From sequence record AP025670.1: a stretch of DNA of 64,000 bases. One strand, 5' to 3'. This document shows, one piece after another, positions 9,092-39,840 of this stretch. The notes beneath the pieces were generated by a model, which was given only the letters and a program-made list of their open reading frames with translations, was not told where the DNA came from and ran no database searches. A program made the translations under genes and the position numbers. This stretch comes from a plasmid. The first letter of the stretch is position 1. The number at the start of each line of letters is the position of its first letter.

Positions 9092-9620
9092 GTCAAATTA
9101 AGTGTGATATACCTTATCCCTCCTTAATTCTGGTTCAGAAAATCTTTCCACAGAAGTTTCTGTGCGTTTATTGATGACTCAAGTATCAATGAACAACATG
9201 TAAAAATCCGAAGTGCAGTGACACTATTTGCCCCTCAATATCAAGAGTACTTGGTTAAAACGAAAAGGCTAACTCGCAACTCTTGGAATGATCCTGTAAT
9301 GGCTGCTCTATAAGTTACTGGGTATCAAATGTTTGAGTCTAGTACAGTGAAAGTTGCACGCAGGGTTCTCAAGAAGACGGCTTTTAATAACAAATGTCGT
9401 CCACCCGACAAAGTGAATTGTGTTGGTGCTGAGTGAAGATTGTACATTCGATCCCTCGGTACTAAACTTAGTACATCTTAGTAATCCAATTGGTAAAAAT
9501 TAGACATGTTGATGAATACTTACTATTAAAAATAGACAGCTGATTAAGCTCGGTGATTTTTTTAATATTAGATACTATCAACCTATGAAAGGTAATGGTT
9601 AATCGCTTACTTATCTATCT

Positions 9621-19030: not shown

Positions 19031-19870
19031 ATGAGATCACAATCGCATTTTGTAGAAACTGAAGCTATAAAGATAGTCCACAATCAGATACCCAGTAAAA
19101 ATTGGGTGTTACGTTCCATTGGTGAAAGAGATTACGGCTCAGATTTCATGATTGAGCTTTTTGATAATAAAGAATCAACTGGTGATTGTTTTTTTGTACA
19201 ATCCAAAGGCACTGAAAAAACATTTACAGAAGATGTAAAAATCAGCTTTCCTGTTAACACTATAAAATATGCAATGCTATTTAACGTACCATTTTTTTTG
19301 TTTTATACGTCTATCACTTCAAAGCAAACAAAATTTATTTGGTTACAAAAATATACTAACTTAGTGCTTAATGAAAAAAATTGGGAAGATAAAAAGTCAA
19401 TAACAATCTATTTTCCAGAAGAAAATGACCTCTCTAAAAATAGAGAAAAAATAATCAAATTACTTGCAAATAGCCGTGCAGTTAATGATTTTATATCATT
19501 TAAGCATACAATCGAAAATTTGAAATTTTGGGGTGAAATGGTCATATATAACAATGATTATTATCATGGCAGTAAATGCATAGAATTATGTCACAAAATC
19601 AATGACATGAAAAATGTAATTTTATATGCATCTGAACTATATGTTGATGATAGTTGCCCTTTTGAAATGAGAACTCAGTATCAGAAACTTAGAATTAATA
19701 AAATGATTTCCACATTTAATAAATTCATTAAATATAAAAAAACAACAAATAAAAAGATTAACTTTATTAAAAAACAATTTGAAATATTAGATTGCATTTG
19801 TAATGACATTATTTCTTCATCAGAATTAGAAAGATGGGGTTATGAGTCTGAAGCCTTAATTCCATTTTAA
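19031..19870 (+). CDS. DUF4365-like / PD-(D/E)xK nuclease-fold N-terminal domain protein (279 aa)
   Basis: …ETEAIKIV…NWVLRSIGERDYGSDFMIELF…GDCFFVQSKG… fits the D…D-x-(E)…(Q/E)xK restriction-endonuclease-like signature. Starts 14 bp after the integrase gene. Confidence 0.5.
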   Translation: MRSQSHFVETEAIKIVHNQIPSKNWVLRSIGERDYGSDFMIELFDNKESTGDCFFVQSKGTEKTFTEDVKISFPVNTIKYAMLFNVPFFLFYTSITSKQTKFIWLQKYTNLVLNEKNWEDKKSITIYFPEENDLSKNREKIIKLLANSRAVNDFISFKHTIENLKFWGEMVIYNNDYYHGSKCIELCHKINDMKNVILYASELYVDDSCPFEMRTQYQKLRINKMISTFNKFIKYKKTTNKKINFIKKQFEILDCICNDIISSSELERWGYESEALIPF

Positions 19871-19890
19871 TTTATTTTGAGATAATTATA

Positions 19891-20901
19891 ATGAGAAATT
19901 TAACCACATGGACTTGTTCCGAAATAACAAAGTTGATTGGGACTATTGACGAACCATTCTTCATTGAAAAAATATGCAAATTTACCGGACGTAGTGTAAA
20001 TGATGTCCTCTCTAAATTGTTGCACATGGGATTGTGTGAAATAAACTATAAGGATAATAAGATATCTACGGCTAGGAATACAAATTTAAACCATCTCATT
20101 CCTTATTCATCATTTATTCCTAAATTATTAGAACTTGGTTGGATATATGAGTTATTAAATAGGGAGGAATCTCTTAAAGCCCCCAAGTGGTGGGTAAATA
20201 ATGATCAGTTCCCTATAAGTAACACTATCGAATTGAATCGTAATGAAACAGTATGGGTTAATGAGGAAATTCATACAGTTATCTCCATGATACAAAACAA
20301 GATGAACCTAAGCTCAATCGCAAATAAAATACATAGAAATCAATCATCTATTACCGCAATGTTAATAGATCTTGGTATTTTAGAATGCATTGATAAACAA
20401 GAAATCTTTTTGTCTGAAGTTAATGAATTGAAACTTTCAAAGTATACATTTAATAATGCGCTTGTTCTTATTAATCATGGATGGGTTGTTACCAACAATA
20501 ATTTATCTGCGCCTAATTGGTGGCTTGAAAATAACAAGGATAATAAGAATGTTCATAATAGCCACTACGATGAAAGGAAAGAAATAACCGGTAATGATAG
20601 CAGACAATTGTATATGTTTATTAAATCAGAATTAGAGGGCATACTAAACACTATTCATGAAAATAAGCGTATCGAAGAATTGTCAGATGTAACGTATTTA
20701 GGTTATACACTTGCAGATTTAACGACCTACATTGGTATTACTTCAGTTAAGGTAGCAGGGCAGGTCACAAAGAACAATAAAACCCACATGAGCTATTTTA
20801 TGGATAAACCTTATAATATAAAGAAAATGTTGATTAACTTTGGTTGGAAAGTTTCAGATGATTCATTAGCAGCTCCTGAATGGTGGTCTAATGAAGAATA
20901 A
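19891..20901 (+). CDS. repeat protein with three HTH-like modules, each ending in GW…L(K/S/A)AP.WW
   Basis: Internal repeats …LGWIYELLNREESLKAPKWW…, …NHGWVVTNNNLSAPNWW…, …NFGWKVSDDSLAAPEWW…. Confidence 0.45.
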   Translation: MRNLTTWTCSEITKLIGTIDEPFFIEKICKFTGRSVNDVLSKLLHMGLCEINYKDNKISTARNTNLNHLIPYSSFIPKLLELGWIYELLNREESLKAPKWWVNNDQFPISNTIELNRNETVWVNEEIHTVISMIQNKMNLSSIANKIHRNQSSITAMLIDLGILECIDKQEIFLSEVNELKLSKYTFNNALVLINHGWVVTNNNLSAPNWWLENNKDNKNVHNSHYDERKEITGNDSRQLYMFIKSELEGILNTIHENKRIEELSDVTYLGYTLADLTTYIGITSVKVAGQVTKNNKTHMSYFMDKPYNIKKMLINFGWKVSDDSLAAPEWWSNEE

Positions 20902-21313
20902 ATACATCTCTTTCATTCAAATTATTTTTTTTACCGTTGCTTGTGTATATCCAGCGTATTTATTAATACGCAGAAAAAACATAATTGATATTTCCATGTT
21001 AATATTTATTGTATTAATTGCAGTAATTGGAGATTTTATTGAGTGCATAACATTAATTGAATTATCTAAGATGTTAGCATCATTCTTTCTTATTGCAATT
21101 TATGTGAATTGCTACCGCAGCTATTTTAAGTACTCTAAAAGTAATATTGATTTAATTAGTTTTAAAGCAGTAGATAATAAGATGGGGTATCTTGTTTTTT
21201 CCAGTGAAACTATATGTTATTTCTTGCCTTTAAAAATAAGTAGCCACTTTAATATGTTATGGTTTTATGGATATTTGAAAGCCATAACCATGCACCTTCA
21301 AAATAGAAAGTGA
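20891..21313 (+). CDS. small multi-pass membrane protein (140 aa), overlapping the previous gene
   Basis: Three to four hydrophobic helices; start overlaps the upstream stop. Confidence 0.4.
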   Translation: MKNKYISFIQIIFFTVACVYPAYLLIRRKNIIDISMLIFIVLIAVIGDFIECITLIELSKMLASFFLIAIYVNCYRSYFKYSKSNIDLISFKAVDNKMGYLVFSSETICYFLPLKISSHFNMLWFYGYLKAITMHLQNRK

Positions 21314-21393: not shown

Positions 21394-22143
21394 ATGAACT
21401 TCATAAGTACCCTTATTCTTGCACTTATCCTACGAATTCTTTACCTCATATATCGAAAACGTAAGCCTAGTTTTTATACTGTTAGCTTGGTAATAATATC
21501 AGTTATTGTGTGGTCCGTTAAATCCTACCTATTGGACTATTACATTATCCCAACATCCTCTATGGCACCGACATTAAAAGCCGGTGATCTCATTTTTGCA
21601 AAGCCGGTTGACACGCAAAAAGAGCAATTGATGCGTGGAGATATCGTGATTTTCCGAGCTCCTGCATTCCCTTCATTCATTTATGTAAAACGCATAATCG
21701 GATTGGCTGGCGATACTATCACTTATGCCGATGATAAGTCAGTCCAGATCAACGGAAGGATGATCGGGCAGCTAAACCATCATAATGACCATACGAGTAC
21801 CTATCAGGCGCTTCAGGAACGTAATGCGCAACAATATGAGTACGTCATTGATAACCGTAAACCATTCGTTAAGCCAATTTATACACAATGGGTAATCCCT
21901 GATGGATATGTTTTTGTTCTTGGCGATAACAGGGATCACTCATGGGATTCACGGTTTTTTGAAAATGCAGTTGGAACTCCAAGGCATTTGCGAGGGCTTG
22001 TTAAAAAGGAACTTTTGATAAGCCGGTATTTAGCCACGGCTTTTACACTTGAGTTTATGAAAAGCGATTTTGATATAGGGGAGAATAGCTTAAAAGTAAT
22101 TTCTGAAGCTCAAACGGCAGAGGGGAATGATGGGGATAAATAG
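21394..22143 (+). CDS. signal peptidase I (S26 family; LepB/TrhF-like)
   Basis: N-terminal TM helix, catalytic-Ser box …SSMAPTLKAGDLIF… and the conserved …GDNRDHSWDSRFF… box. Confidence 0.8.
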   Translation: MNFISTLILALILRILYLIYRKRKPSFYTVSLVIISVIVWSVKSYLLDYYIIPTSSMAPTLKAGDLIFAKPVDTQKEQLMRGDIVIFRAPAFPSFIYVKRIIGLAGDTITYADDKSVQINGRMIGQLNHHNDHTSTYQALQERNAQQYEYVIDNRKPFVKPIYTQWVIPDGYVFVLGDNRDHSWDSRFFENAVGTPRHLRGLVKKELLISRYLATAFTLEFMKSDFDIGENSLKVISEAQTAEGNDGDK

Positions 22144-22480
22144 AAGCTGTATCGCATTAGTTTGCTTTTTCTTGTCATCTTGTGGTTCTACCACAGGGGC
22201 GATCACTACACACGAGCATCTTGTGACGCAAGCCACACAAGATAAGCATGTCAGTTCAGGTGGCTTCGACAGAGTAGCTGATACCTATGTACTGGCAAGA
22301 GAGATTACTGGTCTTGAATCCAACGAAATAAAGCAACTCTATGAGGTGAAGGGGAGTGACAACACATTAATAAAAATTGATATGGCATCTATACCATGCT
22401 CGATATTGCTTAAAAAGAACACAAGTCAAAGTAGTGAGATTTGGCTTATAACTGATATGGGTTGCAATGAATATTTATAA
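22127..22480 (+). CDS. small lipoprotein (lipobox LSSC)
   Basis: Signal peptide ending …FFLSSCGS; overlaps the upstream gene. Confidence 0.5.
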   Translation: MMGINRSCIALVCFFLSSCGSTTGAITTHEHLVTQATQDKHVSSGGFDRVADTYVLAREITGLESNEIKQLYEVKGSDNTLIKIDMASIPCSILLKKNTSQSSEIWLITDMGCNEYL

Positions 22481-23036
22481 AATCTCAGTAATCAGCTCCC
22501 TTTTATTTTCTTCTTTGTCATACAGCAAACCTATTTTTATAGGAGATTCACTTACCTATGAGATAGCTAAAGGGTACAGCACAATCCAAGCTGTTGATGC
22601 TCGATACAAAGTAGGTAGCGGATTATCCACAAAGAATATCCTTGATTGGCAGAGATACGCAGAGCAATTCAGTTTTGAAGAATACGATACCGTTTATGTG
22701 ATTCTCGGTACTAACGACCATGTTCAAATATCAGAAAAAGAAAAGTACACCTCTAAAGTTCGGCATTTTATCCAAACCATAAAAGCCAGAAACCAAAATG
22801 TAATCTGGTTACTTCCTCCAACCCTTAAAGACACCGCCAAAAACAGACTATTAGATAACACTCGGCAAGCCATAATGACGGCTTCGCAGATAGAGGGGAT
22901 CACCACCGTAGATACACGAACGGTTCTTGGTGAAACATACAAGGATGTCATAGATGGGACAACAGTTCGCACAAAGGATGGAATACATATCACTCCAAAC
23001 GGAGCCTTACTTACCGTGACACAGCTACTATTTTAG
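22467..23036 (+). CDS. secreted SGNH/GDSL hydrolase
   Basis: Signal peptide, GDSL block …IFIGDSLTYE… and C-terminal …DGIHITPNG… (DxxH). Confidence 0.65.
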   Translation: MNIYKISVISSLLFSSLSYSKPIFIGDSLTYEIAKGYSTIQAVDARYKVGSGLSTKNILDWQRYAEQFSFEEYDTVYVILGTNDHVQISEKEKYTSKVRHFIQTIKARNQNVIWLLPPTLKDTAKNRLLDNTRQAIMTASQIEGITTVDTRTVLGETYKDVIDGTTVRTKDGIHITPNGALLTVTQLLF

Positions 23037-23053
23037 TAAATTGGAATGTTGTA

Positions 23054-23989
23054 ATGAGAAGAAAGCGTAGATTTAAGAAACGAAATCCCTATGTAACTAA
23101 TATGAATATTGCATTTATATTCTATATGACCACTCTGGTATTTCTTAGATTTGATTCTATTGCGAGAGTTTTAACTTTAGTAATACCTTTATTTGCTGTT
23201 TATATATTGTCACCTAGCAGCAAAATATTGAGGTTACACAAGAGAAAGAAACCTGAATGGGCTTCAGTGGGAATCAAAAGAAATGCCCCTCTATTAAACC
23301 CTCAAGTTGCATTAGTGATAATTGCTGTTACCACAATAACTGTATTTTTTCTTCGTTATGACCATGTAATAACAACGAAAATCATACAACTGATATGGGG
23401 AGATATAAAAACAGCATATGCTGATATTTTCGGGAAAAGCAGTGCGAATAAATTATTCTCTCTGAGGAATATCCCAGTTTGTACATATTATACATTCCAT
23501 ATATTACGTTCATGCGTTGCATTTCTGCTCGTGGCTTATTCAGCAAGTGTCTATTTTCGTTATAAACAACAAACTATGTTTAAAAAGGTACTTTTTAATG
23601 CCACCTATCATGAAGATGCATTGCAATTTATCCGAGAATTATCATGGCGAGAATTTGAGGAATTTATAAGAGAGTTATTCAACAGCCTTGGGTACAGAGC
23701 TACTGTCACTAATTATGGTCCAGATGGTGGGAAAGATATCATTATGGAACGTGATGGAATCAAAGTTTTCGCTCAATGCAAACACTGGAAATCTGACAAT
23801 GTAGGTGTTGCTATCGCCCGTGAAATGGTTGGTGTACTAGAAGCAGAACCCGAATTTAAGCATGTATTTCTAGTCACATCAGGTAAGTTTTCTAACGATG
23901 CAGTTCTATACAGTCACAGAACATCTGACCGTCTGACACTCATGGACGGAAAAATGATAGCCGATAAATTATTGCTGTTAAGAAAGTAA
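23054..23989 (+). CDS. membrane-anchored Mrr-cat (restriction-endonuclease-like, PD-(D/E)xK) protein
   Basis: Four N-terminal TM helices, then …FEEFIRELFNSLGY…YGPDGGKDIIMERDGIKVFAQCKHW…, which fits the Mrr catalytic-domain pattern (DGG-D … QCK). Confidence 0.6.
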   Translation: MRRKRRFKKRNPYVTNMNIAFIFYMTTLVFLRFDSIARVLTLVIPLFAVYILSPSSKILRLHKRKKPEWASVGIKRNAPLLNPQVALVIIAVTTITVFFLRYDHVITTKIIQLIWGDIKTAYADIFGKSSANKLFSLRNIPVCTYYTFHILRSCVAFLLVAYSASVYFRYKQQTMFKKVLFNATYHEDALQFIRELSWREFEEFIRELFNSLGYRATVTNYGPDGGKDIIMERDGIKVFAQCKHWKSDNVGVAIAREMVGVLEAEPEFKHVFLVTSGKFSNDAVLYSHRTSDRLTLMDGKMIADKLLLLRK

Positions 23990-24078
23990 TCCGCTTTTAG
24001 AACCTTTGCGCCCTATTCGTAGGGCGTAATTCTATAACATATATCAGATACACGTAACACAGATTATTGAGGCTCAAA

Positions 24079-25041
24079 ATGACGGATGTTTCTTCCAATG
24101 CAAAAAAAAATGAAAGTAAAAAAGGACTTGGTTTTCTTCTGAATAAAAAATCCATGATTGCAGTTGCAGTTGCAGCAGGTGCAATAGCAGTATTTGTTTT
24201 ACTCAAACCAGCAACAGACACGACAGAAATTGATGTTAATTATTATAGTGACGTTGAAACCTCTATTCCTGTTTTTAACAATCCCAAAGAGGCAGAACCA
24301 GAATCGAACAGTGCCGAGAACGTAACTAAAACCGATTCTCCGGCATCAGAGGTTAAATCCGACTCTGTTACAGGAGATGTTGCTAAGACGCTCTCAGAAG
24401 CAGAACAGGAGCATTCTGACGTAACAGAAACACAGAATCCATCAGATAGCGAACAAAGCATTAATGGCATGCTTGAGCATGTTAGCGAAGCTGCTACTTC
24501 AGTAGTGGAACACACTCAGGCATTAAGTACAAACTTTACAGGTCAACCACCTGCACCGGCAGCTCAGGAGCTCAGTGATGTGTATTACAGCAATCAGGCT
24601 CCAACACAGCAACAAGACTTTAAAAACGTATTTGATGCAGCATTGGAAGAAAGAAACAAACGCCTTGAAAATGACCAAAACCTCGACTATGTAGGGAAGC
24701 AATTAACGATCCCATACGCGCCAAATTCACAAACTAAAGTCTATCTCTACCGTAATTTTGCAGTGAAAATTTTCCTACCTGCACAATCCGAAGCCGTTAA
24801 AGAGCTCAATTACTTCATCAATGGCTCAGACCATGACGATCATTTCGACATCAAATTATTACCAAATAACATTTTGCTCTTATCGAAAAAGCCAAGTTCT
24901 GAAGTGTGGGGCGGCACAGACTTATTCATCACTCATGGTAAACAAAATTATACATTTATATTACTTAGTGCGAAAAACCCTGATGAAAGAACTGATTCTA
25001 TTCATTATGAAAAAGTAAGCGCAAACACAACCAATAAGTGA
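24079..25041 (+). CDS. acidic Ser/Thr/Glu-rich single-pass membrane protein with a conserved C-terminal beta-rich domain
   Basis: One TM helix after a basic N-terminus, a long low-complexity acidic linker and a structured C-terminal about 130 aa. Confidence 0.4.
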   Translation: MTDVSSNAKKNESKKGLGFLLNKKSMIAVAVAAGAIAVFVLLKPATDTTEIDVNYYSDVETSIPVFNNPKEAEPESNSAENVTKTDSPASEVKSDSVTGDVAKTLSEAEQEHSDVTETQNPSDSEQSINGMLEHVSEAATSVVEHTQALSTNFTGQPPAPAAQELSDVYYSNQAPTQQQDFKNVFDAALEERNKRLENDQNLDYVGKQLTIPYAPNSQTKVYLYRNFAVKIFLPAQSEAVKELNYFINGSDHDDHFDIKLLPNNILLLSKKPSSEVWGGTDLFITHGKQNYTFILLSAKNPDERTDSIHYEKVSANTTNK

Positions 25042-25098
25042 TCGTTAACTCTCCAAAACTACCTTACAGCCCCTTTTTGGGGCTTTTTTGGATTCAAA

Positions 25099-25656
25099 AT
25101 GGAAAAATACACGAGTCTGAGAACAATAGCTGACGATATTCAGATGTACCCATATTCATATCTATTATGCCGACAATTATTAAAAAAGGGATACATCGAG
25201 GGCGAGGCTGTGATTGGTATCTATAAGCAAGAACTGGTCCACACTCCGGAGACAGATTTAGCTTACACAAACAGCATTTTGCAATACTCATGGATCGAGA
25301 CAAAGGCTCATACCGTCATAGACCCTTTAATTGATTTTCGCGACGGAAACCGAGAAATTAACCTAATCGAGAGAGACAAAACACCAAATTACCATGCAGG
25401 CGTAAATCCCTTGAAAATTACGAAGGAATTACTTCCAGAACATCGTTGCTCTGATGAAGTGTTTACACTAATGAGAGGGGCTGAATCAGAGGCTATGAGG
25501 CGAATTTTAGGTTTAGAACAAAACCCCAATGGGATCACAATGACTGAAGCGGCTTACATAGCAAATTATCATACGTGTGATTACTTAGGATATGATAGGA
25601 TTATTTTGAATTTTTTTATTAAACACAAATTAACACCAATCATAATAAACGAATAG
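25099..25656 (+). CDS. hypothetical protein (185 aa)
   Basis: ORF only. Confidence 0.35.
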   Translation: MEKYTSLRTIADDIQMYPYSYLLCRQLLKKGYIEGEAVIGIYKQELVHTPETDLAYTNSILQYSWIETKAHTVIDPLIDFRDGNREINLIERDKTPNYHAGVNPLKITKELLPEHRCSDEVFTLMRGAESEAMRRILGLEQNPNGITMTEAAYIANYHTCDYLGYDRIILNFFIKHKLTPIIINE

Positions 25657-25704: not shown

Positions 25705-26019
25705 ATGCCAGATTTAGAATATTACTTACTTTCCCCTGCTTCACACAAAGGTGTAGAAAACGAACATGCAAACTCAGGTAGAATGTTAGACCGATATTTG
25801 AATACTAATGGTCGCTGGAGTGCATTTCCACCCAAGAAGAATATTAGCTTATTATATTGGAGCTCAAGAGAGGAAATATTAAAAGCCGCAGAAATAGCAA
25901 TCAATTCAGGGCGAGATGTGCATATTTGCAAAATATCAACAAATGGAAAAGTAAACCAAGATAGAATGATTAATTACAACGAAAATCATTTACCCTGCCT
26001 AACAGGATATATAAAGTAA
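25705..26019 (+). CDS. hypothetical protein (104 aa)
   Basis: ORF only. Confidence 0.3.
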   Translation: MPDLEYYLLSPASHKGVENEHANSGRMLDRYLNTNGRWSAFPPKKNISLLYWSSREEILKAAEIAINSGRDVHICKISTNGKVNQDRMINYNENHLPCLTGYIK

Positions 26020-26034
26020 CTACTAGCAAAATTA

Positions 26035-26065
26035 AATGCAGATATGTGGAATATATCTGCATTTA
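26035..26065. terminator. Bidirectional terminator hairpin (AAATGCAGATAT-gtggaat-ATATCTGCATTT) between convergent genes
   Basis: 12-bp perfect stem with flanking A/T runs. Confidence 0.6.
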
Positions 26066-26070
26066 TTTGT

Positions 26071-26508
26071 TTATTTTATAAATTTAAATTTATGCTCATC
26101 TGATTTAGAACAATGTTTTTTATCACAAAACTCTCTTTCTTTGTTTATAAACTCACCTAGATATGTGTAAAATCCATCCGGTTCTTCATTTACAGATTTT
26201 TTTAATTTTTCGTATGCCTCTTGGTTCATCGGCGTATACTTCAATAGCAATTGGTCTAAGTATTCAATTTTATTACTTGCTATTTTTCTGCCAAATACTC
26301 TATATGCTATATATCCAGCTAACAATGATAGAAATAATGATAGCCACAGATTAAATTCAGCTTTCAAAGGTAGAAAAAAAATTAATAAGAAAAATATCAA
26401 GGCTGCGGGTCCATACGATGCTTTTGCCAATTCTCGGTTTACTGTCATTTCATCTAGTTCATAGCATCGTTGAATTTGGTTAAGACTGGTTCTATTTTTC
26501 TTTGACAT
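26071..26508 (-). CDS. small membrane protein (2 TM helices) encoded downstream of the UvrD-like helicase
   Basis: Hydrophobic hairpin …PAALIFFLLIFFLPL…WLSLFLSLLAGYIAY…. Confidence 0.4.
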   Translation of the reverse strand: MSKKNRTSLNQIQRCYELDEMTVNRELAKASYGPAALIFFLLIFFLPLKAEFNLWLSLFLSLLAGYIAYRVFGRKIASNKIEYLDQLLLKYTPMNQEAYEKLKKSVNEEPDGFYTYLGEFINKEREFCDKKHCSKSDEHKFKFIK

Positions 26509-26565: not shown

Positions 26566-28101
26566 TTAGATTTGTGTTGTACTATTTAAAAAAATGTGTA
26601 GTTCTTCCGGAGTTACTATTGGAATGTTTCTTTTTTTGTCTTTTCTATATTTTATTAATGAAATTATTTCCATAATTACCATTGATACCGATAGAGCTTT
26701 CGTAGCTCTGGTTACTGCAACGTATAACAAATTTAATTCATCATTAATAAATATTAGATTCTGTTTTTGTTTTGGTGTTTTCTCAATATATTCAACTAAT
26801 GAAACATAATCATCATCAATCTCAATATATTCCCATTCAAGTCCTTTCGATGAATGTGCAGTTACAAGCGTTAAATCAGCATCATTGTAATTATTAACTG
26901 CTGCTTCTTTAATTTTATCAACCAGCTCTAGAATATCAGGCTCATTTTCAATTAGGTGTATCGTCCTTTTCAACGTATTGTCGCCTGAGTTCTCTGCAAC
27001 GCTTACAACCCGATCCCAATTTGGATAGTCGTATAAAAATGCTTTTCTCTTAATCATTTTAGTATTGCCGATATACAGATAGTAAAAATCAGCAATATCG
27101 TCTAAAGCATACCTATCAATACCACCTACGAAGAACACTTTTTTACCGTTTCTTCCAGCGTCAATTGCATTGATCAACACAGATAGATTGGTGCGTGAAA
27201 TCACAGTTCTAGGGAAGATATTCTTGATTTCAGCTTTATTTATGAGCTTATCAGTAATACCGGTCGTTTTAAGGCTTACAGTCTCCCCTTTTAACATCAG
27301 TATGGCATTTGCGATAGCTGCTACACATCGTCCAAACCGATATGACGTAGTTAGACGCAATATCTGAGCTCCATCACGTACAGAGGCATCTAGGGCATCA
27401 TTTGCCCCACGCCAGCGGTTGATCATCTGGTGCGTATCACCTACAAAGATTCGTTTGCATTCACATTTATCTAGCATTGCCTTCGTTACTAAGTTGGCAT
27501 CCTGTGCTTCATCAAACAAAATGATATCGAACCATGTATGTAGGGGAGGGGCTACTAACTGAAAATATTTTATGTAAAAGTCAGGGGGAGCAGGGAAGTC
27601 ACTGTTAGGGTCAGCTTGTAATTCAAAAATGAGTTTTGCATTTTCTAATGCGCATTTCCTAACATTTTCAGCATGTTTTTTACCATTCCCTGTGTTCTCT
27701 GTTGGAACGTGATGTATCTGTAACGAATAATCAGCAGACCTATAATAATTATTTAGAGTCTCGATTATGAGAAATTGCAATTGAACAGATGTAATATTTA
27801 GTAGCCGAGCCACATCGAACCCATTGAAATTAAACTTCATTTTGTACTTCAATTTTTTCAAATACCGATATGCCATTGCATGAGTGGTGATCACTTTGGT
27901 ATTAGAAGGAAATTTTTGTGATGCTTCTATCTGTATGCCTTTGTTGTAAGCTAAGTACAAAATACGTTTATCCGGATTACGCTTTGCCAATTGAGTCAAT
28001 ATGAACGTTTTGCCTGAACCTGCATAAGCCTGACAGCAAATATACTTTTCTTCAGAGGCTAAAATGGCTTCTTGTTCTTGAGATAAGATTATCTTTGACA
28101 T
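26566..28101 (-). CDS. UvrD/Rep-like superfamily 1 DNA helicase (short form, 511 aa)
   Basis: Walker A …AYAGSGKTF…, …RILYLAYN…, …FVGDTHQMINRWRGA… and C-terminal …LVTAHSSKGLEWEYIEI…. Confidence 0.75.
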   Translation of the reverse strand: MSKIILSQEQEAILASEEKYICCQAYAGSGKTFILTQLAKRNPDKRILYLAYNKGIQIEASQKFPSNTKVITTHAMAYRYLKKLKYKMKFNFNGFDVARLLNITSVQLQFLIIETLNNYYRSADYSLQIHHVPTENTGNGKKHAENVRKCALENAKLIFELQADPNSDFPAPPDFYIKYFQLVAPPLHTWFDIILFDEAQDANLVTKAMLDKCECKRIFVGDTHQMINRWRGANDALDASVRDGAQILRLTTSYRFGRCVAAIANAILMLKGETVSLKTTGITDKLINKAEIKNIFPRTVISRTNLSVLINAIDAGRNGKKVFFVGGIDRYALDDIADFYYLYIGNTKMIKRKAFLYDYPNWDRVVSVAENSGDNTLKRTIHLIENEPDILELVDKIKEAAVNNYNDADLTLVTAHSSKGLEWEYIEIDDDYVSLVEYIEKTPKQKQNLIFINDELNLLYVAVTRATKALSVSMVIMEIISLIKYRKDKKRNIPIVTPEELHIFLNSTTQI

Positions 28102-28355: not shown

Positions 28356-28715
28356 CTACAATATCGGTAATGCCGTTGTTACTGCAACAGATGAAGTCAT
28401 GATACCGTTGATGATATCCGGAGCATAGTACAGACCAATTGCCGCACCAACCGCCACTGCAAAGGTCATTAACGACTGACGAACAACCGCCGCAGCAATA
28501 CCAACAACTACAATCAGCCCCACTAACACACGACCTAATGACCCCTGCATATATGCAGTAATTTGCATCCATACTTCTTTGAAACCGGACTGTTCGGTTC
28601 CTTTGCCATAGGCAAACATAACTGCCAGTGCCGCTACACATAACACTGCGAAAACCACGAAAAGCACTTTTTTGGTATCAATTTTCGGCATGGCACATGT
28701 TTTTACTAATTGCAT
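28356..28715 (-). CDS. conjugative pilin-like protein (TraA/TrbC/VirB2-like topology)
   Basis: Leader peptide (MQLVKTCAMPKIDTKKVLFVVFAVLCVAALAVMFAYG), a hydrophilic segment, then two hydrophobic helices; adjacent to a DsbA/C-like gene. Confidence 0.4.
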   Translation of the reverse strand: MQLVKTCAMPKIDTKKVLFVVFAVLCVAALAVMFAYGKGTEQSGFKEVWMQITAYMQGSLGRVLVGLIVVVGIAAAVVRQSLMTFAVAVGAAIGLYYAPDIINGIMTSSVAVTTALPIL

Positions 28716-30314: not shown

Positions 30315-32825
30315 GTGGTGAGTATGAACTATTTAGGTGCAGTTTTTCCCGATATAACAATGCAAAACGGTTCTAATTATGAAATTGCAAATTTAAAAAC
30401 AGGTAACATTGTTGCATCAAATAATCTTAAAAATTTAGAGAAGCAGGTTCGCCGAATGTTTATAAACTGGTTAAAATCCATACTGAAATCAGGGAAAGAT
30501 CCCTTCTCAGTAGATGTGTCAACATCGCCAGATATGCAGGAATCACAGCATTCCATACTTCAAAAAGGTGAGATTGAAATTCCGGATGATATTAAATCTC
30601 AAATAGAAACATTCAAAATGCCGATTGGATATCCGCCAAAAATTGAAGGATATCCTGCAAGAATCAGCGGAAAACAATTGCTGATTAAAACCCAAGCGGA
30701 AATGATCACAAAAATCAAAAGAGAAATGCAAATCGGTGAGCTATTTGATGAATTGGTCATGCCACTACTATGTAATACTGCTGATTTTATACACTTACTA
30801 CCGGCTTCTGAAGCACATCACCACAGAGCTCAAGGAGGGCTTTTACGACACAGTTTAGAAGTCTGTTACATCGCAGTTAAGCACACAAAGACCACTGACT
30901 TTGATAGCAATGAAACCCCTGAAGAACGGTCTGCTAACGCTTTGAAATGGCGTCTTGCAGTGGCTGTAACAGCATTACTGCACGACATTGGTAAACCAGT
31001 GTCTGACTATGAAATTTGGGATCAGACTGGTGTATATCAGTGGAAACCGAGTGGAAAAAACCTGTTTCATTGGGCTGTTGAACACGATATAGAAAGATAT
31101 TTTTTACAGTGGAACAAGAAAAGGCATAACAATCATAGAATTATAGCACCTTCGCTTATTGAAAAAATTGTTCCTGCGAAAGTGATAGAACTACTTCAGC
31201 AAAATAGTAAAAACCTATATTTCAAAGTTATAGAGGCAATTTCTAACAGCGATAACATGGAACTGGCGGATAAAAAAACAATCAATGGCAATCAGTTGTT
31301 TAATATTCTGTTACTCGCAGACCGAGCCTCTGTTGCAAATGACCTTAAATTGACATCAGGTGATGCGATACGCGCTGCCGGTTCTGGTGTATCAACTATT
31401 CAGCGTCTGGTTGATACTATGCGCCAATTTATATCATCAGGTCGTTGGACCCCAAACGTTCCTCCTAGTCCGATTTGGTCAACGCCAGATGGGGTCTACA
31501 TTATTTGGGCTAGTGCCGCTGAAGAATTATGCAAAGAGATAAAAAACCTTGGAATTTTTATCCCACAATCAGCAGATAGTTTAGGTGAGATACTATTAGC
31601 TCATGATGTAATCATTGAAGCGCCAAGAGGTTCACTCTATTGGAAGATTGCACCAAAAAAGTTACTCAAATCAGCGTCGTTTATAAAAGATCCAGACACG
31701 TTCTTTTACTGCGTGAAATTAGCTTCAGACGAATTACTATTTGGCGAAAATATAAAGCCAACACATGCATCTGTTTATGTCAAAAACGAAACGAGTTGGG
31801 TTAGTTTTGAACCAAAAACAGGAACTAATGTAGAAATCACAGGTGAAAAAACTGAACCAACTATCGTAAACAATGATTTTAAGCATCAACCGATTGATAT
31901 TGTAGATAAAATAATAAATGATACACCTCCAGAATCTGATAATGTAACTAGCATAATGGAAACGCTTGAAGAACTAGCCATTATCGAGCCGGTATGTAAT
32001 GAACAAGCCGTTGAAGTACCTGAAGTTCAAGTTATAGCAGCATGTGATCTCAAGATACAGGGTGGTGATACACTGCCAGTAGGCAATCCTGCTTCTGAGA
32101 TAACCCATAAACACAGCCTAGGGTTAAAAGAACGGATTATTGCCATGAGTAAACCGTCAGTAGCACTACCAATGAAATCACTGACTGATATACCAGTAGC
32201 TACTCAATTATCTGAGCAGAAATCATTGTTTGCAGACGTGAAACTTGATGACACCGACTCCGTAGAGATTACAACTCAAAAGGGTATGCATAGTGATATC
32301 TATATTACAGCTGATCTTCATATCAGAGAGGCTTTTGAAATATATCTATTAGGGCTTTCAAAAAAACAGTTAATTAGCAACATAAATCAAAATCACTTAC
32401 TGGTTGATGATAAACTCGAAATACCCTCGGCATGGAAAGCCAGAAGCCCTCAAGCATCGCGTTCTAAAGATGATGAAGCGCTGGTGCTTTTAAGATCAAA
32501 TTTCTATCTTGTTTTGAAAAAAGAATTACTCATTGATGTATTTATCATCACTGGATTTTCTGAAATTGAACAAATGTTAAATCCAGTCATTCCTGACTTA
32601 GCAACTTCATTAATTGAAGATGTCATATTTTCTATTCACAATGAAAACGACATTTCAGAAAACCAATTTAAAACGATTCAATATATAGAGTTGAGTCGGA
32701 CAGAACTTATTGAAATATCTGCTAAGTTGGGGGTGTCTCAAACGACATTCAAACAAATCATGGCTGTTAGGTTTGAAAGCTACAACAGCCATTTTGGACT
32801 TCAATTTATGCGAGAAAAACAATGA
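30315..32825 (+). CDS. traI: MOBH-family conjugative relaxase (TraI of the SXT/IncC/R27 type) with an HD-hydrolase motif
   Basis: …SEAHHHRAQGGLLRHSLEV… followed by …ALLHDIGKP… (histidine triad plus HD), as in MobH relaxases. The start codon is uncertain (GTG 30315, ATG 30324 or later) because the divergent gene begins at 30293. Confidence 0.6.
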   Translation: MVSMNYLGAVFPDITMQNGSNYEIANLKTGNIVASNNLKNLEKQVRRMFINWLKSILKSGKDPFSVDVSTSPDMQESQHSILQKGEIEIPDDIKSQIETFKMPIGYPPKIEGYPARISGKQLLIKTQAEMITKIKREMQIGELFDELVMPLLCNTADFIHLLPASEAHHHRAQGGLLRHSLEVCYIAVKHTKTTDFDSNETPEERSANALKWRLAVAVTALLHDIGKPVSDYEIWDQTGVYQWKPSGKNLFHWAVEHDIERYFLQWNKKRHNNHRIIAPSLIEKIVPAKVIELLQQNSKNLYFKVIEAISNSDNMELADKKTINGNQLFNILLLADRASVANDLKLTSGDAIRAAGSGVSTIQRLVDTMRQFISSGRWTPNVPPSPIWSTPDGVYIIWASAAEELCKEIKNLGIFIPQSADSLGEILLAHDVIIEAPRGSLYWKIAPKKLLKSASFIKDPDTFFYCVKLASDELLFGENIKPTHASVYVKNETSWVSFEPKTGTNVEITGEKTEPTIVNNDFKHQPIDIVDKIINDTPPESDNVTSIMETLEELAIIEPVCNEQAVEVPEVQVIAACDLKIQGGDTLPVGNPASEITHKHSLGLKERIIAMSKPSVALPMKSLTDIPVATQLSEQKSLFADVKLDDTDSVEITTQKGMHSDIYITADLHIREAFEIYLLGLSKKQLISNINQNHLLVDDKLEIPSAWKARSPQASRSKDDEALVLLRSNFYLVLKKELLIDVFIITGFSEIEQMLNPVIPDLATSLIEDVIFSIHNENDISENQFKTIQYIELSRTELIEISAKLGVSQTTFKQIMAVRFESYNSHFGLQFMREKQ

Positions 32826-34735
32826 GTGATTGGAAACATTTAATGCCATTTCGTACTAACTACGAGATGTATGAAGTTTGTGGTTGGGGAACCGGTGTAT
32901 TAGCTACGGTCGGTGTTGGTACATATCTATCAATGCCTCTAACTGCTACGCTATCTGCTGCTGCGATACAAAGCATTTTCGCTATGAAATCATTGCCAAA
33001 TGCAATTAAAATTGCAGTCTTGCATAAAAACCTAAAAACCAGACCGGCTCCTACGTTTACTTCAGCCTATGATGTTGTCAAAGAAATGATGAACAATCGC
33101 GACACGACATTGATAGGTAAAGGCTTTACATGGCGGCATGAGCATGGACAACGGGCATATGAAATTTTAAAAAGTGGTGTTGCTGACAGGTTTTTACCTA
33201 ATGATCATGAAAGCATGGGGCACGGTTGGATTCATAAATTAGGGAATTCAAATGAGTGGATCAGCGTACCTGACGACTTAATGACGCTACATACGTCATT
33301 AACTGGTACTACGGGTTCCGGTAAAACGACTCTTTACAAATTACTTATTCTGCAAGCTGCTTTAAAACGGCAACCTCTTATTCTAATTGACCCTAAAAAT
33401 GATGAGGAACTTGCTGATTATATGTACAAGTGCATGAAACTAATGGAACGAGAAGATGATTTTTATTATCTTTCCATTGCACACTTGGATAAATCCAACC
33501 GGATTTCACCAATATCAAATTATTCCAACTCAACTGAAGTAGCCAGCCGTATTATTTCCGTTATCCAGAAGGCTGATAACACAACTGATCCATTTATTTC
33601 ATTTGCGACAATGACGTTGACAACTATTGTGCAGTTGATGAATTTCGCAAACGTAAAGCCTACTCTTGTAAATATAAAAGCACAGCTTGGTACTAATTTG
33701 GGTAATTTTGCTGAATTACTTGTTAAAGCAATCGACAAATTAGGATATGAGCTATTTCCTGATGTATACGACTCACTTCTTGATCGTAGACTAGAACATC
33801 AATCAATGACTAGAACGACAGGAACTATCGAGAACCATGCCGGAATAAGAATCACTATCTATCTGAATGATATTGCAAAAATTAAGGAATATACATTCAT
33901 TAAAAGTGGAATTGACCTATTTCAGCATAATCGTGAACATTTCCAAAAGATGATATTAACGGCACTACCTGTATTAAGCATGTTAACTAGTGATGGGTTA
34001 GATGAAGTATTGTCACCGTCCAGTGAGAATATTGATGATGAAAGAGTCATTACTAATATGAAAGATATCATCAATACAAACGGGATGATGTATTTAGGGC
34101 TTAATTCTCTTGCTGATGGTGATAAAGGAAACGCTGTTGGCTCAATATTTCTAAGCGATATCACTGCTGTTGCGGCTGATATTTATAACTATGCAAAACC
34201 GCGCGGTGAAAAGAAACGCGATACAAATATTCTTATTGATGAAGCTGCTGAAGTTATCAACGATCAGGTTATTCGGCTTCAAAATAAAGGGAGAGGGGCA
34301 GGGTTTAAGTTATTCATTGCCTCACAGTCTACCACTGACTACGTTGCTACCCTTGGCTCTGAAGCGAAAAAAGAACAAGTTAGTATAAATGCGAACCATA
34401 ACATTGCATTACGGACTATCAATATTCAAGGTCAAAAAGATTTAATAGAAAGAATACCAACTACAAATTTCAAGTACATCCAAAGAGGGCATGGTACGAG
34501 TTCGGGGGAAGATCCAGAAAAAATCACCGGAAGTATTGGTGAGCGATTGATGGAGGTTGAGAGTGAGTTATTTCCTCCACAACTATTAGGAAACCTCCCA
34601 AATCTAGAGTTTTGCGCTATTTTAAAAGCGGGGAATATATGTAAAGGTCAAATTCCAATTGTACAATTACCAACCAGCGAAAAAGAAGTATTAAAGTTAA
34701 AGATGCTAATCAAAGAATTTAATAAGGCACGTTAA
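32822..34735 (+). CDS. traD: type IV coupling protein (TraD/VirD4 family)
   Basis: Two N-terminal TM helices, Walker A …LTGTTGSGKTT… and Walker B …ILIDEAAE…; overlaps the relaxase stop. Confidence 0.65.
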   Translation: MSDWKHLMPFRTNYEMYEVCGWGTGVLATVGVGTYLSMPLTATLSAAAIQSIFAMKSLPNAIKIAVLHKNLKTRPAPTFTSAYDVVKEMMNNRDTTLIGKGFTWRHEHGQRAYEILKSGVADRFLPNDHESMGHGWIHKLGNSNEWISVPDDLMTLHTSLTGTTGSGKTTLYKLLILQAALKRQPLILIDPKNDEELADYMYKCMKLMEREDDFYYLSIAHLDKSNRISPISNYSNSTEVASRIISVIQKADNTTDPFISFATMTLTTIVQLMNFANVKPTLVNIKAQLGTNLGNFAELLVKAIDKLGYELFPDVYDSLLDRRLEHQSMTRTTGTIENHAGIRITIYLNDIAKIKEYTFIKSGIDLFQHNREHFQKMILTALPVLSMLTSDGLDEVLSPSSENIDDERVITNMKDIINTNGMMYLGLNSLADGDKGNAVGSIFLSDITAVAADIYNYAKPRGEKKRDTNILIDEAAEVINDQVIRLQNKGRGAGFKLFIASQSTTDYVATLGSEAKKEQVSINANHNIALRTINIQGQKDLIERIPTTNFKYIQRGHGTSSGEDPEKITGSIGERLMEVESELFPPQLLGNLPNLEFCAILKAGNICKGQIPIVQLPTSEKEVLKLKMLIKEFNKAR

Positions 34736-35086
34736 ATGGATAATATTGTCCCAGAGTATGAGTTTAGATCCAATGCAAGCGACATATATTTTGCTCGTTT
34801 TCTTCTCCAGTGGAATATTTGTAGCCGTCAGATCATATTGATGCTTCTATCTATGAAGGACACTGAATTTGAAACCATTTTCTGTGACTACTTCAACGAA
34901 CAAATTGAGAAATATTATCAAAGAAAAAAAACTGATTTGAAGATTTCAGATTGGGACAATCTAGCAATAGTCATTTCAAAATCCATAATTTTTCTTTCAA
35001 AGTTAAATAACACTTCGCCTTTAGATGAATATCACAAGTATAAATTCCCTGAAAGGTTAGATAATAGCGTTATTTCCAGTTTCTAA
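34736..35086 (+). CDS. hypothetical protein (116 aa) translationally coupled to the coupling-protein gene
   Basis: ATG overlaps the upstream TAA. Confidence 0.35.
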   Translation: MDNIVPEYEFRSNASDIYFARFLLQWNICSRQIILMLLSMKDTEFETIFCDYFNEQIEKYYQRKKTDLKISDWDNLAIVISKSIIFLSKLNNTSPLDEYHKYKFPERLDNSVISSF

Positions 35087-35097
35087 AGAGGTTATTA

Positions 35098-35295
35098 ATG
35101 TCAGCCGATACACAATCTAACGGTAGCTCAATTAAAAAACTGTTACTTACGGTAACAGTTTTACTCATTATCATGTCATTGTTTATCCCTGCTGAATGGT
35201 ATAAATCAAACATGGTTAGCGAGTTAAAAATGGGCGAATTGATTACTGGTTCAAGTTTGATTCCTTGGACTCTTCAGAATACAGACAGCAAATAA
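35098..35295 (+). CDS. small membrane protein whose 3' end is fused into the ISEcp1 fragment. It is probably truncated by the element
   Basis: GAGG RBS and a TM helix; the last about 15 codons are read from ISEcp1-derived DNA. Confidence 0.35.
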   Translation: MSADTQSNGSSIKKLLLTVTVLLIIMSLFIPAEWYKSNMVSELKMGELITGSSLIPWTLQNTDSK

Positions 35296-35624
35296 AGACC
35301 TTTCGTTTGAAGTATGTATTTCTTGCAGCAAAAATAATCAAAACCGCAAGATATGTAATCATGAAGTTGTCGGAAAACTATCCGTACAAGGGAGTGTATG
35401 AAAAATGTCTGGTATAATAAGAATATCATCAATAAAATTGAGTGTTGCTCTGTGGATAACTTGCAGAGTTTATTAAGTATCATTGCAGCAAAGATGAAAT
35501 CAATGATTTATCAAAAATGATTGAAAGGTGGTTGTAAATAATGTTACAATGTGTGAGAAGCAGTCTAAATTCTTCGTGAAATAGTGATTTTTGAAGCTAA
35601 TAAAAAACACACGTGGAATTTAGG
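35250..35624 (+). mobile_element. ISEcp1: 3' fragment of ISEcp1 (last about 46 codons of tnpA, promoter, and IRR ACGTGGAATTTAGG at 35611-35624)
   Basis: tnpA tail …EYRQQIKTFRLKYVFLAAKIIKTARYVIMKLSENYPYKGVYEKCLV*, the promoter-bearing tail GATTGAAAGGTGGTTGTAAATAATGTTACAATG and the exact IRR match my recollection of ISEcp1. No full tnpA is present. Confidence 0.85.
35521..35550 (+). promoter_or_regulatory. ISEcp1 outward promoter (-35 TTGAAA 35521-35526; -10 TACAAT 35545-35550) driving blaCTX-M
   Basis: Consensus-like hexamers inside the ISEcp1 tail, about 125 bp upstream of the bla ATG. Confidence 0.7.
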
Positions 35625-35673
35625 TTCAATGAATACTTGAAGGCCAAGGGATAATACTAATAGAGGATTTTTA

Positions 35674-36549
35674 ATGATGACTCAGAGCATTCGCCGCTCA
35701 ATGTTAACGGTGATGGCGACGCTACCCCTGCTATTTAGCAGCGCAACGCTGCATGCGCAGGCGAACAGCGTGCAACAGCAGCTGGAAGCCCTGGAGAAAA
35801 GTTCGGGAGGTCGGCTTGGCGTTGCGCTGATTAACACCGCCGATAATTCGCAGATTCTCTACCGTGCCGATGAACGTTTTGCGATGTGCAGTACCAGTAA
35901 GGTGATGGCGGTCGCGGCGGTGCTTAAACAGAGCGAGAGCGATAAGCACCTGCTAAATCAGCGCGTTGAAATCAAGAAGAGCGACCTGGTTAACTACAAT
36001 CCCATTGCGGAGAAACACGTTAACGGCACGATGACGCTGGCTGAGCTTGGCGCAGCGGCGCTGCAGTATAGCGACAATACTGCCATGAATAAGCTGATTG
36101 CCCATCTGGGTGGTCCCGATAAAGTGACGGCGTTTGCTCGCTCGTTGGGTGATGAGACCTTCCGTCTGGACAGAACCGAGCCCACGCTCAATACCGCCAT
36201 TCCAGGCGACCCGCGTGATACCACCACGCCGCTCGCGATGGCGCAGACCCTGAAAAATCTGACGCTGGGTAAAGCGCTGGCGGAAACTCAGCGGGCACAG
36301 TTGGTGACGTGGCTTAAGGGCAATACTACCGGTAGCGCGAGCATTCGGGCGGGTCTGCCGAAATCATGGGTAGTGGGCGATAAAACCGGCAGCGGAGATT
36401 ATGGCACCACCAACGATATCGCGGTTATCTGGCCGGAAAACCACGCACCGCTGGTTCTGGTGACCTACTTTACCCAACCGGAGCAGAAGGCGGAAAGCCG
36501 TCGGGATATTCTGGCTGCGGCGGCGAAAATCGTAACCCACGGTTTCTGA
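35674..36549 (+). CDS. blaCTX-M-2: class A extended-spectrum beta-lactamase, CTX-M-2 group (KLUA-type)
   Basis: [28 protein letters not shown]… N-terminus and full-length match to the CTX-M-2 lineage; STSK, SDN and KTG motifs; a GC-rich ORF inside AT-rich DNA. Confidence 0.9.
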
Positions 36550-36555
36550 TGCAAT

Positions 36556-36582
36556 AAATGGAGCGAGGTATCGCTCCATTTA
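36556..36582 (+). terminator. Terminator hairpin AAATGGAGCGA-ggta-TCGCTCCATTT after blaCTX-M-2
   Basis: 11-bp perfect stem plus a T. Confidence 0.65.
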
Positions 36583-36784
36583 CGTTAAAAATGTGCTCCT
36601 GAACTTCAGTCTTGTCTTGCAACGAACCCTCATCTCTTTCTATCATTCCGCTCTTTTTTCTGGACCAAATATCTTAGCTTCAGGAAGGTAATAGATAACA
36701 ATTTCTTATGTAAACTATTTTATTTTAAATAATGTTTAAGGCATTTAATTATTAGGTTGTTTGTTTTTATTGTAATTATCTGAT

Positions 36785-37435: not shown

Positions 37436-37512
37436 ATATAAGATACCTATTTAAGAAACAAAAAAACCGCATATAGCGGCTATTGTTTGAATTGGAATTG
37501 ATGAATATTAGT

Positions 37513-38010: not shown

Positions 38011-38140
38011 ATTTTCACCTATTTATTAAATAAGAGACACATAATTAAAACTATGAGCTCAGAGTTTTTGAATAAAGTATATTCAATGATTGAATATATT
38101 TTATTAGGGCGTAGAAAAGCCTTGACTGTTAAGCGTGATG

Positions 38141-39815: not shown

Positions 39816-39840
39816 TTTTTCTGTAAACTAAATGTATAAA

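Follow-up and report, generated by a model that had tools for sequence, protein, structure and literature searches.

What is a signal peptidase of its own doing on a plasmid, set in a row with a lipoprotein, a secreted SGNH enzyme, a membrane-anchored nuclease and an acidic membrane protein? The question is raised by five open reading frames (ORF1 to ORF5) on the plus strand, at positions 21394-25041 of a 64,000-nucleotide stretch of plasmid DNA (sequence record AP025670.1), which is referred to below as the window and in whose coordinates positions are given. An earlier sequence-only reading had taken these genes for an envelope operon with no described counterpart and possibly engaged in abortive infection. 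A counterpart does exist: the orthologous cluster of the Proteus plasmid Rts1 was dissected gene by gene in 2024 (PMC10838148). We regard the region, with a probability of about 0.72, as the pPrY2001-lineage version of the Rts1 orf184-orf192-type accessory conjugation cluster, which belongs to the backbone of IncT-related plasmids with MOBH and an F-type type IV secretion system (T4SS). The unit is thus a lineage variant of a known accessory mating-pair-formation cluster and not a new envelope or defence system.

All five ORFs are found in the sequence with the strand and junctions previously proposed, and the domains assigned to them are borne out by Pfam (Peptidase_S26, 2.6e-36; DUF459/GDSL, 6.9e-22; Mrr_cat, 5.4e-23), which holds no family for ORF2 or ORF5. 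Judged from the comparison with other plasmids, the conserved unit is larger than five genes, and an ORF upstream (20891-21313) and another downstream (25099-25656) belong to it. The features are the following:

20891-21313, plus strand: small membrane ORF with two transmembrane (TM) segments, 140 residues, at the position of Rts1 orf184
21394-22143, plus strand: LepB-like S26 signal peptidase (ORF1; Pfam Peptidase_S26), orthologue of Rts1 Orf185
22127-22480, plus strand: small lipoprotein of 117 residues (ORF2), homologue of Rts1 Orf187
22467-23036, plus strand: secreted SGNH enzyme of the PatB/DUF459 family, 189 residues (ORF3), a lineage-specific insertion
23054-23989, plus strand: four-TM protein with a predicted cytoplasmic Mrr_cat nuclease domain, 311 residues (ORF4), orthologue of Rts1 Orf189
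24079-25041, plus strand: membrane-anchored acidic protein of 320 residues (ORF5) with a predicted C-terminal VirB9/TraK-like beta-sandwich, homologue of Rts1 Orf191
25068-25084, plus strand: strong intrinsic terminator (AGCCCC-TTTTT-GGGGCT, then TTTTTT), 27 nucleotides 3' of ORF5
25099-25656, plus strand: cytoplasmic protein of 185 residues, homologue of Rts1 Orf192, outside the coordinates of the sequence-only reading and within the conserved cluster

The function assigned to this cluster follows from orthology with Rts1 proteins, from synteny in six plasmid lineages and from the deletion phenotypes known in Rts1. The lineages inspected besides that of the window are Rts1 (IncT), pKPC_CAV1321-244 (hereafter pCAV1321-244), pArsFIN8 of Arsenophonus, pPROV162-1 and the Citrobacter amalonaticus Y19 plasmid. 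In BLASTP comparisons, ORF1 aligns with Rts1 Orf185 (38% identity, E 3e-57), ORF2 with Orf187 (4e-7; 3e-20 and 9e-6 with the Arsenophonus and pCAV1321-244 proteins), ORF4 with Orf189 (26% over 300 residues, 6e-33; 43% over the full length with the Arsenophonus protein, 1e-92), ORF5 with Orf191 through its C-terminal 109 residues (34%, 2.5e-15), and the product of 25099-25656 with Orf192 (32%, 1e-25; 2e-61 with Arsenophonus and 2e-29 with pCAV1321-244). The homologues of Orf187, Orf189, Orf191 and Orf192 follow the Orf185-orthologous peptidase in the Rts1 order, and the cluster stands upstream of traA, mobH and traD in a MOBH/F-type T4SS backbone.

The same arrangement recurs in all five of the other lineages, where a small membrane ORF, lepB, a protein of ~200 residues, a lipoprotein of ~110 residues, the TM-Mrr protein, a protein of 290-450 residues and one of 190-230 residues succeed each other, with extra genes in some of them (a 4-TM protein before TM-Mrr; a ParB after TM-Mrr in Rts1), and where the cluster adjoins traA, a UvrD-like gene, dsbA, mobH and traD. 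The sequence-only reading had called for a check on the co-occurrence of the S26 peptidase and the TM-Mrr protein: they are syntenic in at least six plasmid lineages. Wide co-occurrence was assessed from these six inspected lineages and from a tblastn search of ORF1, ORF4 and ORF5 against the 72,556 plasmids of PLSDB, in which the three genes show a nearly identical spread over genera (Providencia 60-61, Citrobacter 58-65, Proteus 26-30, Klebsiella 19, Escherichia 13, Moellerella 10) and lie within a few kb of one another in every record inspected.

The upstream ORF is the member whose place in the cluster is defined by position. No Orf184 homology was found for it by sequence similarity (tblastn, small hidden Markov models [HMMs] and BLASTP against the other lineages), and its counterpart by place in Rts1, pCAV1321-244, pPROV162-1, the C. 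amalonaticus plasmid and Arsenophonus is a membrane ORF of ~140 residues immediately 5' of lepB. A copy of the window ORF with an identity of only 84% is likewise uninterrupted by stop codons.

This collinearity weighs heavily against another alternative, namely that the five genes are unrelated cargo brought side by side and in the same direction by chance. The evidently separate acquisition of the SGNH gene, the chance-level frequency of promoter-like sites and the variation of GC content over the wider region would all suit such a history; the order of four of the five genes and the downstream gene is nevertheless kept in six lineages at 26-47% protein identity, and adjacent genes have overlapping stop and start codons, so that we hold chance assembly to be very improbable.

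ORF1 and ORF2 overlap by 17 nucleotides (22127/22143) and ORF2 and ORF3 by 14 (22467/22480), ORF3 and ORF4 are separated by a 17-nucleotide gap (23036/23054), and ORF5 starts with an ATG at 24079 after the end of ORF4 at 23989, with an alternative TTG at 24067. The proposal of one transcript agrees with the common direction and tight spacing of the genes. Promoter-like sites are not enriched across the region (43 found against 48.6 expected by chance), and co-transcription is therefore deduced from spacing. Rts1 has a hairpin between orf191 and orf192 (9372-9389 of the Rts1 locus, L003), at the position equivalent to the terminator of the window, which makes it plausible that the transcription unit ends at 25068-25084, after ORF5.

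Ratios of non-synonymous to synonymous substitution (dN/dS), computed against two related plasmids, indicate purifying selection on all five genes (0.04-0.59): 0.09-0.13 for ORF1, 0.18-0.27 for ORF2, 0.59 for ORF3, 0.04-0.07 for ORF4, the lowest of the cluster, and 0.21 for ORF5. The corresponding values are 0.22-0.50 for the ORF at 20891-21313 and 0.11 for the Orf192 homologue. Public annotation of these genes is uneven, RefSeq treating the cluster differently in plasmids that are identical or nearly so. The pIB_NDM_1 record cuts the lipoprotein to 85 residues, without its lipobox, places the start of the Mrr protein 16 codons late and leaves the ORF at 20891-21313 uncalled; p06-1619-1 has the 117-residue lipoprotein and the long Mrr form, and the upstream ORF is partly annotated there.

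What these genes do is best approached from Rts1. Each gene of this plasmid was removed in turn by Murata, Gotoh and Hayashi (DNA Res 2024, PMC10838148), who measured transfer from E. coli to E. coli. The relative conjugation efficiency was 0.45 upon deletion of orf184, which is dispensable, 0.00097 of wild type for orf185 (lepB) and <0.0001 of wild type for orf186; it was 0.35 for orf187 and 0.38 for orf188-190, meaning that E. coli matings can do without the lipoprotein and the Mrr block, and 0.056, 0.018 and 0.00065 for orf191, orf192 and both together. According to mobilisation assays, 185, 186 and 191 act in mating-pair formation, whereas 192 does not. These data are in line with the idea of a plasmid-private second LepB-like peptidase. 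The authors emphasize the requirement of Rts1 for two peptidases, Orf185 and the TraF-type Orf215, state that the substrate of Orf185 is not known and report no homology for Orf186, Orf191 and Orf192; pPrY2001-like plasmids are not among the Rts1 relatives that they list (PMC10838148).

ORF1 has the features of a type I signal peptidase (S26A, LepB), with a membrane anchor made of two N-terminal TM segments, the catalytic Ser and Lys, and boxes B-E. The motifs read in the sequence are a Ser56 box (IPTSSMAPTL), a Lys99 box (YVKRIIGLAGD) and a GDNRDHSWDSR box, and the protein scores as a housekeeping-type signal peptidase I (NCBIfam sigpep_I_bact TIGR02227, 118.8 bits against a cutoff of 47). 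That the peptidase might belong to the neighbouring T4SS, a possibility which the sequence-only reading had named as adverse to its own proposal, comes close to the outcome, but its identification with a TrhF-type enzyme does not stand: a TraF/TrhF conjugative peptidase was rejected as ORF1 fails the TraF_Ti model (TIGR02771, 28.2 bits against a cutoff of 100.25), and the tra operon of pIB_NDM_1 has a separate small S26 gene of this TrhF type (171 residues) between traC and trbC/traW. We propose that the LepB-like peptidase would be contributed by the plasmid to process at least one exported T4SS component. The most plausible substrate would be the TraA propilin, which has a Sec-type leader that ends in ...FAYG/KG.

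The acidic protein ORF5 has one TM segment and 46 Asp and Glu against 28 Lys and Arg, and its C-terminal domain is predicted to fold as a VirB9/TraK-type beta-sandwich. Below-threshold matches to the N-terminal half of Pfam CagX are given by 12 of 15 ORF5 relatives (best 2.5e-6), including Rts1 Orf191 (8.4e-5, 22.9 bits against a threshold of 34.2), and they cover only positions 6-104 of the 198 in the profile; ORF5 has neither the two-domain architecture of VirB9 nor its VirB7-binding C-terminal domain. The Orf191 family is very small, with 14 clusters among 1.84 billion representatives. Further rounds of protein-database searching gave few, mostly fragmentary matches, and a profile search of genome contigs with a two-sequence family alignment gave four close loci only. 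The acidic protein would consist of an inner-membrane anchor and a long disordered acidic linker that crosses the periplasm and presents the beta-sandwich, which would probably dock on the TraK/TraV/TraB outer-membrane core complex or help to assemble it. Such a predicted membrane-tethered VirB9-like module fits the mating-pair-formation phenotype of the orf191 deletion, Orf191 contributing about 18-fold to Rts1 transfer and scoring as a mating-pair-formation gene.

The Orf192 homologue would, in line with Rts1 genetics, support transfer at a step other than mating-pair formation. Neither it nor the upstream ORF matches anything in PADLOC, NCBIfam or Pfam. Cys24-Arg25, Tyr63-x-Trp65, Asp75-Pro76 and His115 are invariant in its family across the six lineages; by eye these residues resemble a Cys/His/Asp hydrolase signature, possibly transglutaminase-like. 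The lipoprotein ORF2 has a lipobox, L-S-S-C19, and Cys19, Pro90-Cys91, Trp106 and Cys113 are invariant in the six lineages; it has no match in Pfam, NCBIfam, PADLOC or PDB, and the profiles of the lipoprotein and Orf192 families retrieve nothing credible among PDB sequences. Both this lipoprotein, apparently of a disulfide type, and the membrane-tethered Mrr nuclease are conserved and under purifying selection, yet their Rts1 orthologues are dispensable, and they probably serve a conditional function.

For ORF4, the Mrr_cat domain (PF04471) spans residues 193-304 (81.7 bits against a gathering score of 21), and its PD-(D/E)XK residues E202, D224, D228, Q241 and K243 are invariant in four lineages. 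The N-terminus is basic, a hydropathy scan gives three segments above threshold and one weaker segment, and the orthologues show four TM; the positive-inside rule, applied by eye, would place the nuclease domain in the cytoplasm. The TM-Mrr proteins of Rts1 (L003, 5970-7043) and pCAV1321-244 (L004, 7197-8276) end in a C4 Zn_ribbon_Top1 domain (1e-11), which is missing from the window and Arsenophonus versions; this topoisomerase-type zinc ribbon supports DNA as the ligand. Our best guess is that the nuclease would cleave foreign or modified DNA at the membrane, as a conditional form of DNA surveillance.

These properties bring in the abortive-infection framing, according to which the operon would be an anti-phage or anti-plasmid system with the Mrr protein as effector and the envelope proteins serving in sensing or maturation. 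The invariant catalytic residues, the strongest purifying selection in the cluster and a DUF4365 nuclease-like gene upstream in a low-GC stretch are compatible with it, as is the dispensability of the Mrr block for Rts1 conjugation (0.38), whose retention calls for another reason. In the PADLOC defence library ORF4 matches PDC-S02 (1.6e-12) as well as ZorD and type IV restriction endonuclease profiles. These matches are, however, confined to the nuclease domain (for PDC-S02, residues 192-303 and profile positions 192-303 of 334), PDC-S02 is a candidate class only, for which a literature search found no published test, and the other four proteins match no defence model. The cluster moreover occupies a fixed position in the conjugation backbone of six lineages instead of moving among defence islands, and the loss of any of three of its members directly affects conjugation in Rts1. 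The defence framing of the operon is not supported; at most the Mrr gene, and not the operon, could be a defence gene, and we consider the abortive-infection system unlikely.

The SGNH gene is of another nature. PatB is the closest match to ORF3 by both sequence and structure: its best PDB sequence matches are the PatB proteins of Campylobacter jejuni and Neisseria gonorrhoeae (3.4e-6 to 4e-3), and DUF459 corresponds to the PatB family of Gram-negative peptidoglycan O-acetyltransferases (PMC9487903). The earlier suggestion of a cell-wall enzyme is therefore sound as to family. An Ape1-type esterase was considered first and downgraded in favour of PatB, although block II keeps an esterase possible: it reads KVGSGL, with a Gly, where the aligned C. 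jejuni PatB has KQNTGL (KQST or KQNT in PatB), and most ORF3 relatives have a Ser there (family consensus ESTGL). A change of the block II Gly to Ser or Asn has been proposed to favour transfer over hydrolysis (bioRxiv 10.1101/2024.09.17.613324), and ORF3, with its Gly, may be either an esterase or a transferase. Against the NCBIfam PatB equivalog, ORF3 scores 26.8 bits for a cutoff of 580.

As a conserved partner of the other genes, in contrast, the SGNH enzyme does not hold: the clusters of Rts1, pCAV1321-244, pPROV162-1, the C. amalonaticus plasmid and Arsenophonus have no such gene, and on other plasmids it lies in unrelated contexts. Its homologues are almost all encoded on plasmids of Providencia (68), Proteus (64), Morganella (11) and Moellerella (10), also in Photorhabdus/Xenorhabdus, and in several backbone types, such as an IncX-like plasmid or IncT plasmids, where the gene stands by itself. 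The IncT gene is among the WP_0110397xx proteins that precede the orf184 region (WP_011039774 onward); if accessions follow gene order, we infer that it lies within the orf7-orf158 block, which can be deleted from Rts1 without loss of E. coli mating (PMC10838148). In view of this nearly Morganellaceae-confined spread, the varied contexts and the possible IncT location in a dispensable block, we read the gene as a host-adaptation insert acquired separately and not as a core member. The secreted PatB-family enzyme, inserted in this lineage only, would add or remove peptidoglycan O-acetyl groups, and its insertion would be an adaptation to Morganellaceae hosts with O-acetylated peptidoglycan. These host genera appear in the portion covered of a list of bacteria with O-acetylated peptidoglycan, a modification which blocks lytic transglycosylases, and E. 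coli is absent from that same portion (PMC6174289).

The host range of the SGNH gene would also suit a different view of the whole cluster, as a host-envelope adaptation module lying beside tra by accident, in which the peptidase, the lipoprotein and the PatB-like enzyme remodel O-acetylation, for example for resistance to lysozyme or lytic enzymes. The PatB-like nature of the enzyme, its near confinement to these plasmids and hosts, their place in the covered part of the O-acetylation list (PMC6174289) and the occurrence of the gene on many plasmid types in differing contexts all speak for an envelope role, but of the SGNH gene only, since it is absent in five of five other lineages while the rest stay together; the peptidase and Orf191 orthologues are, furthermore, mating-pair-formation genes by experiment. 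We rate this view as unlikely, about as much so as the abortive-infection one.

A bolder proposal keeps the cluster in conjugation and makes the membrane Mrr protein a conjugation-coupled DNA gatekeeper at the inner membrane near the T4SS, cutting foreign DNA that comes in by way of the mating or pilus apparatus or beside it, for example the genomes of pilus-specific phages or competing plasmids. The PatB-like enzyme would tune O-acetylation to let the T4SS lytic transglycosylase open the O-acetylated wall of Morganellaceae. To our knowledge, neither idea has been described for F-type systems, and we consider the proposal unlikely.

Several points weigh against reading the region as an Rts1-type conjugation cluster. 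One of them is the missing Orf186, a protein of ~200 residues that is essential in Rts1 and whose gene immediately follows that of the peptidase in Arsenophonus, pCAV1321-244, pPROV162-1 and the Y19 plasmid: searches of the window and of pIB_NDM_1 22181-99278 by tblastn and with a 3-sequence HMM found no homologue (best E 0.16), and the cluster therefore cannot work exactly as in Rts1. The functional data are all carried over from Rts1 proteins that are only 26-38% identical, and part of the cluster may serve a role other than transfer, since neither the lipoprotein nor Mrr shows a conjugation phenotype in Rts1. For the peptidase, TraA is a candidate substrate. ORF5 of the window itself gives no Pfam CagX match, and hhalign detects no profile similarity between the Orf191 C-terminal profile and the plasmid's own TraK, a result that also led us to reject ORF5 as a recent TraK duplication. 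Finally, the cognate traL-to-traU operon is absent from the 64-kb window, and the backbone breaks inside the traJ (DUF4400) gene; the accessory cluster may thus be an orphan in this mosaic plasmid.

The plasmid context is otherwise that of a conjugative backbone. Over the region, identity is 100% with pIB_NDM_1 from Proteus mirabilis, a MOBH/MPF_F conjugative plasmid, and 95-100% with some 60 pPrY2001-like plasmids. The latter come from Proteus, Providencia, Moellerella and Morganella and from E. coli capture strains, are typed MOBH/MPF_F and are mostly conjugative; 66 related plasmids match it, 53 of them with a coverage of at least 80%. Downstream of the cluster lie a UvrD-like helicase gene, traA for the pilin, a gene of the DsbA type, mobH and traD. 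The places of three of them, confirmed by the annotation of the identical pIB_NDM_1 region, are:

28356-28691, minus strand: traA
30315-32825: mobH
32822-34735: traD

Collinearity with the pIB_NDM_1 backbone extends only over 5046-35250. Beyond 35250 follow blaCTX-M-2, an inverted fragment from recT to the end of traU (36805-40661), IS26, ISCR1, a class 1 integron, a mer operon and IncC backbone. Plasmid p.BML2526 (NZ_LC507075.1) matches only piecewise, window 32559-43366 corresponding to 103000-113807 of the record and window 45965-64000 to ~174057-192082 (qacEdelta1-sul1, IS1326, tni, the mer operon, IncC tus-like and DNA-binding genes), and the window plasmid is therefore a related but differently arranged pPrY2001/IncC hybrid.

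Between an integrase gene and the cluster, a low-GC stretch (19031-20901; 27-31% against ~37-40% in the cluster) encodes a DUF4365 protein (Pfam 1.2e-15; PADLOC Aga_REase-type match 8.6e-7) and a 336-residue protein with three repeats, each ending in A-P-x-W-W. Both genes are absent from the Arsenophonus counterpart, and the stretch may therefore be a small defence-like insertion. On the other side, the segment 3' of the Orf192 homologue (25705-26508) varies between plasmids: the window has a 104-residue ORF and, on the opposite strand, a 145-residue ORF, with a bidirectional terminator (26033-26065) between them, and NZ_CP072987.1 and NZ_KX832929.1 have a 358-residue hypothetical gene instead. 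The UvrD-like helicase (26566-28101, minus strand) gives GajB-type matches in PADLOC down to 1.4e-17 and lies beside traA in all six plasmid lineages. Its Rts1 counterpart would be orf193, from its position right after orf192, whose deletion leaves a relative efficiency of 0.93 (Supplementary Table S1, PMC10838148); the helicase gene seems to belong to the backbone and not to a Gabija system. As to regulation, a guessed SetCD/AcaCD-like motif (GCCSAAA) gave six scattered backbone matches, none of them informative, and no regulatory link was established.

The practical value of a full conjugation gene set comes from the part of pPrY2001-like plasmids in the spread of NDM-1 and other carbapenemases in Proteus and Providencia. 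The Rts1 study established that IncT-type transfer needs a second LepB-like peptidase and orphan proteins, with no hint of their mode of action. To this our analysis adds that the Orf191 family is predicted to be a membrane-tethered VirB9/TraK-like protein, that a second plasmid family which still conjugates has the cluster without the 'essential' Orf186, that the SGNH gene encodes a PatB-family enzyme restricted to hosts with O-acetylated peptidoglycan and that the Mrr nuclease is the most constrained gene though it has no mating phenotype in Rts1. Current understanding is not overturned by these results; they refine the annotation of an accessory module, in which the room for discovery lies mainly with the Mrr nuclease and the PatB-like enzyme.

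Compared with known systems, each protein is recognizable and departs from its closest relatives. ORF3 has in common with the PatB proteins of N. gonorrhoeae and C. jejuni an SGNH domain with a Ser-Asp-His triad, the block III Asn and a hydrophobic residue before the His (DGIH). It differs from them by its size, of only about 170 mature residues, by the Gly in place of the Ser/Asn of block II, by a cleavable-type signal peptide that replaces the N-terminal TM helix and the 82-residue linker, and by its neighbours, the cluster having no MBOAT (PatA) gene and no adjacent patA or ape1. With Mrr and the type IV restriction endonucleases, ORF4 shares the PD-(D/E)XK core of Mrr_cat, its D...D...QxK intact; four TM helices take the place of the N-terminal DNA-binding domain, residues 1-185 being without a domain match, and it has a fixed position in a conjugation backbone and no known defence phenotype. 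RP4 TraF, SXT TrhF and R27 TrhP share with ORF1 the S26 fold and are plasmid-encoded and required for mating-pair formation, whereas ORF1 is distinguished by its two TM anchors and Ser/Lys dyad. Compared with VirB9 and the TraK of the F plasmid, ORF5 would have a single domain only, on an inner-membrane anchor via an acidic linker of ~160 residues, in a plasmid family that also has its own canonical TraK.

Finally, with respect to Rts1 orf184-orf192 (Murata, Gotoh and Hayashi 2024, DNA Res 31:dsae002), the window is without Orf186, the 4-TM protein Orf188 and the ParB-like Orf190, has the PatB-like SGNH gene inserted after the lipoprotein gene and encodes a shorter Mrr protein that lacks the C-terminal zinc ribbon, at protein identities of only 26-38%. 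Both clusters nonetheless have the same order and orientation of their five shared genes, lie upstream of traA/mobH/traD and carry a terminator after the Orf191-type gene.

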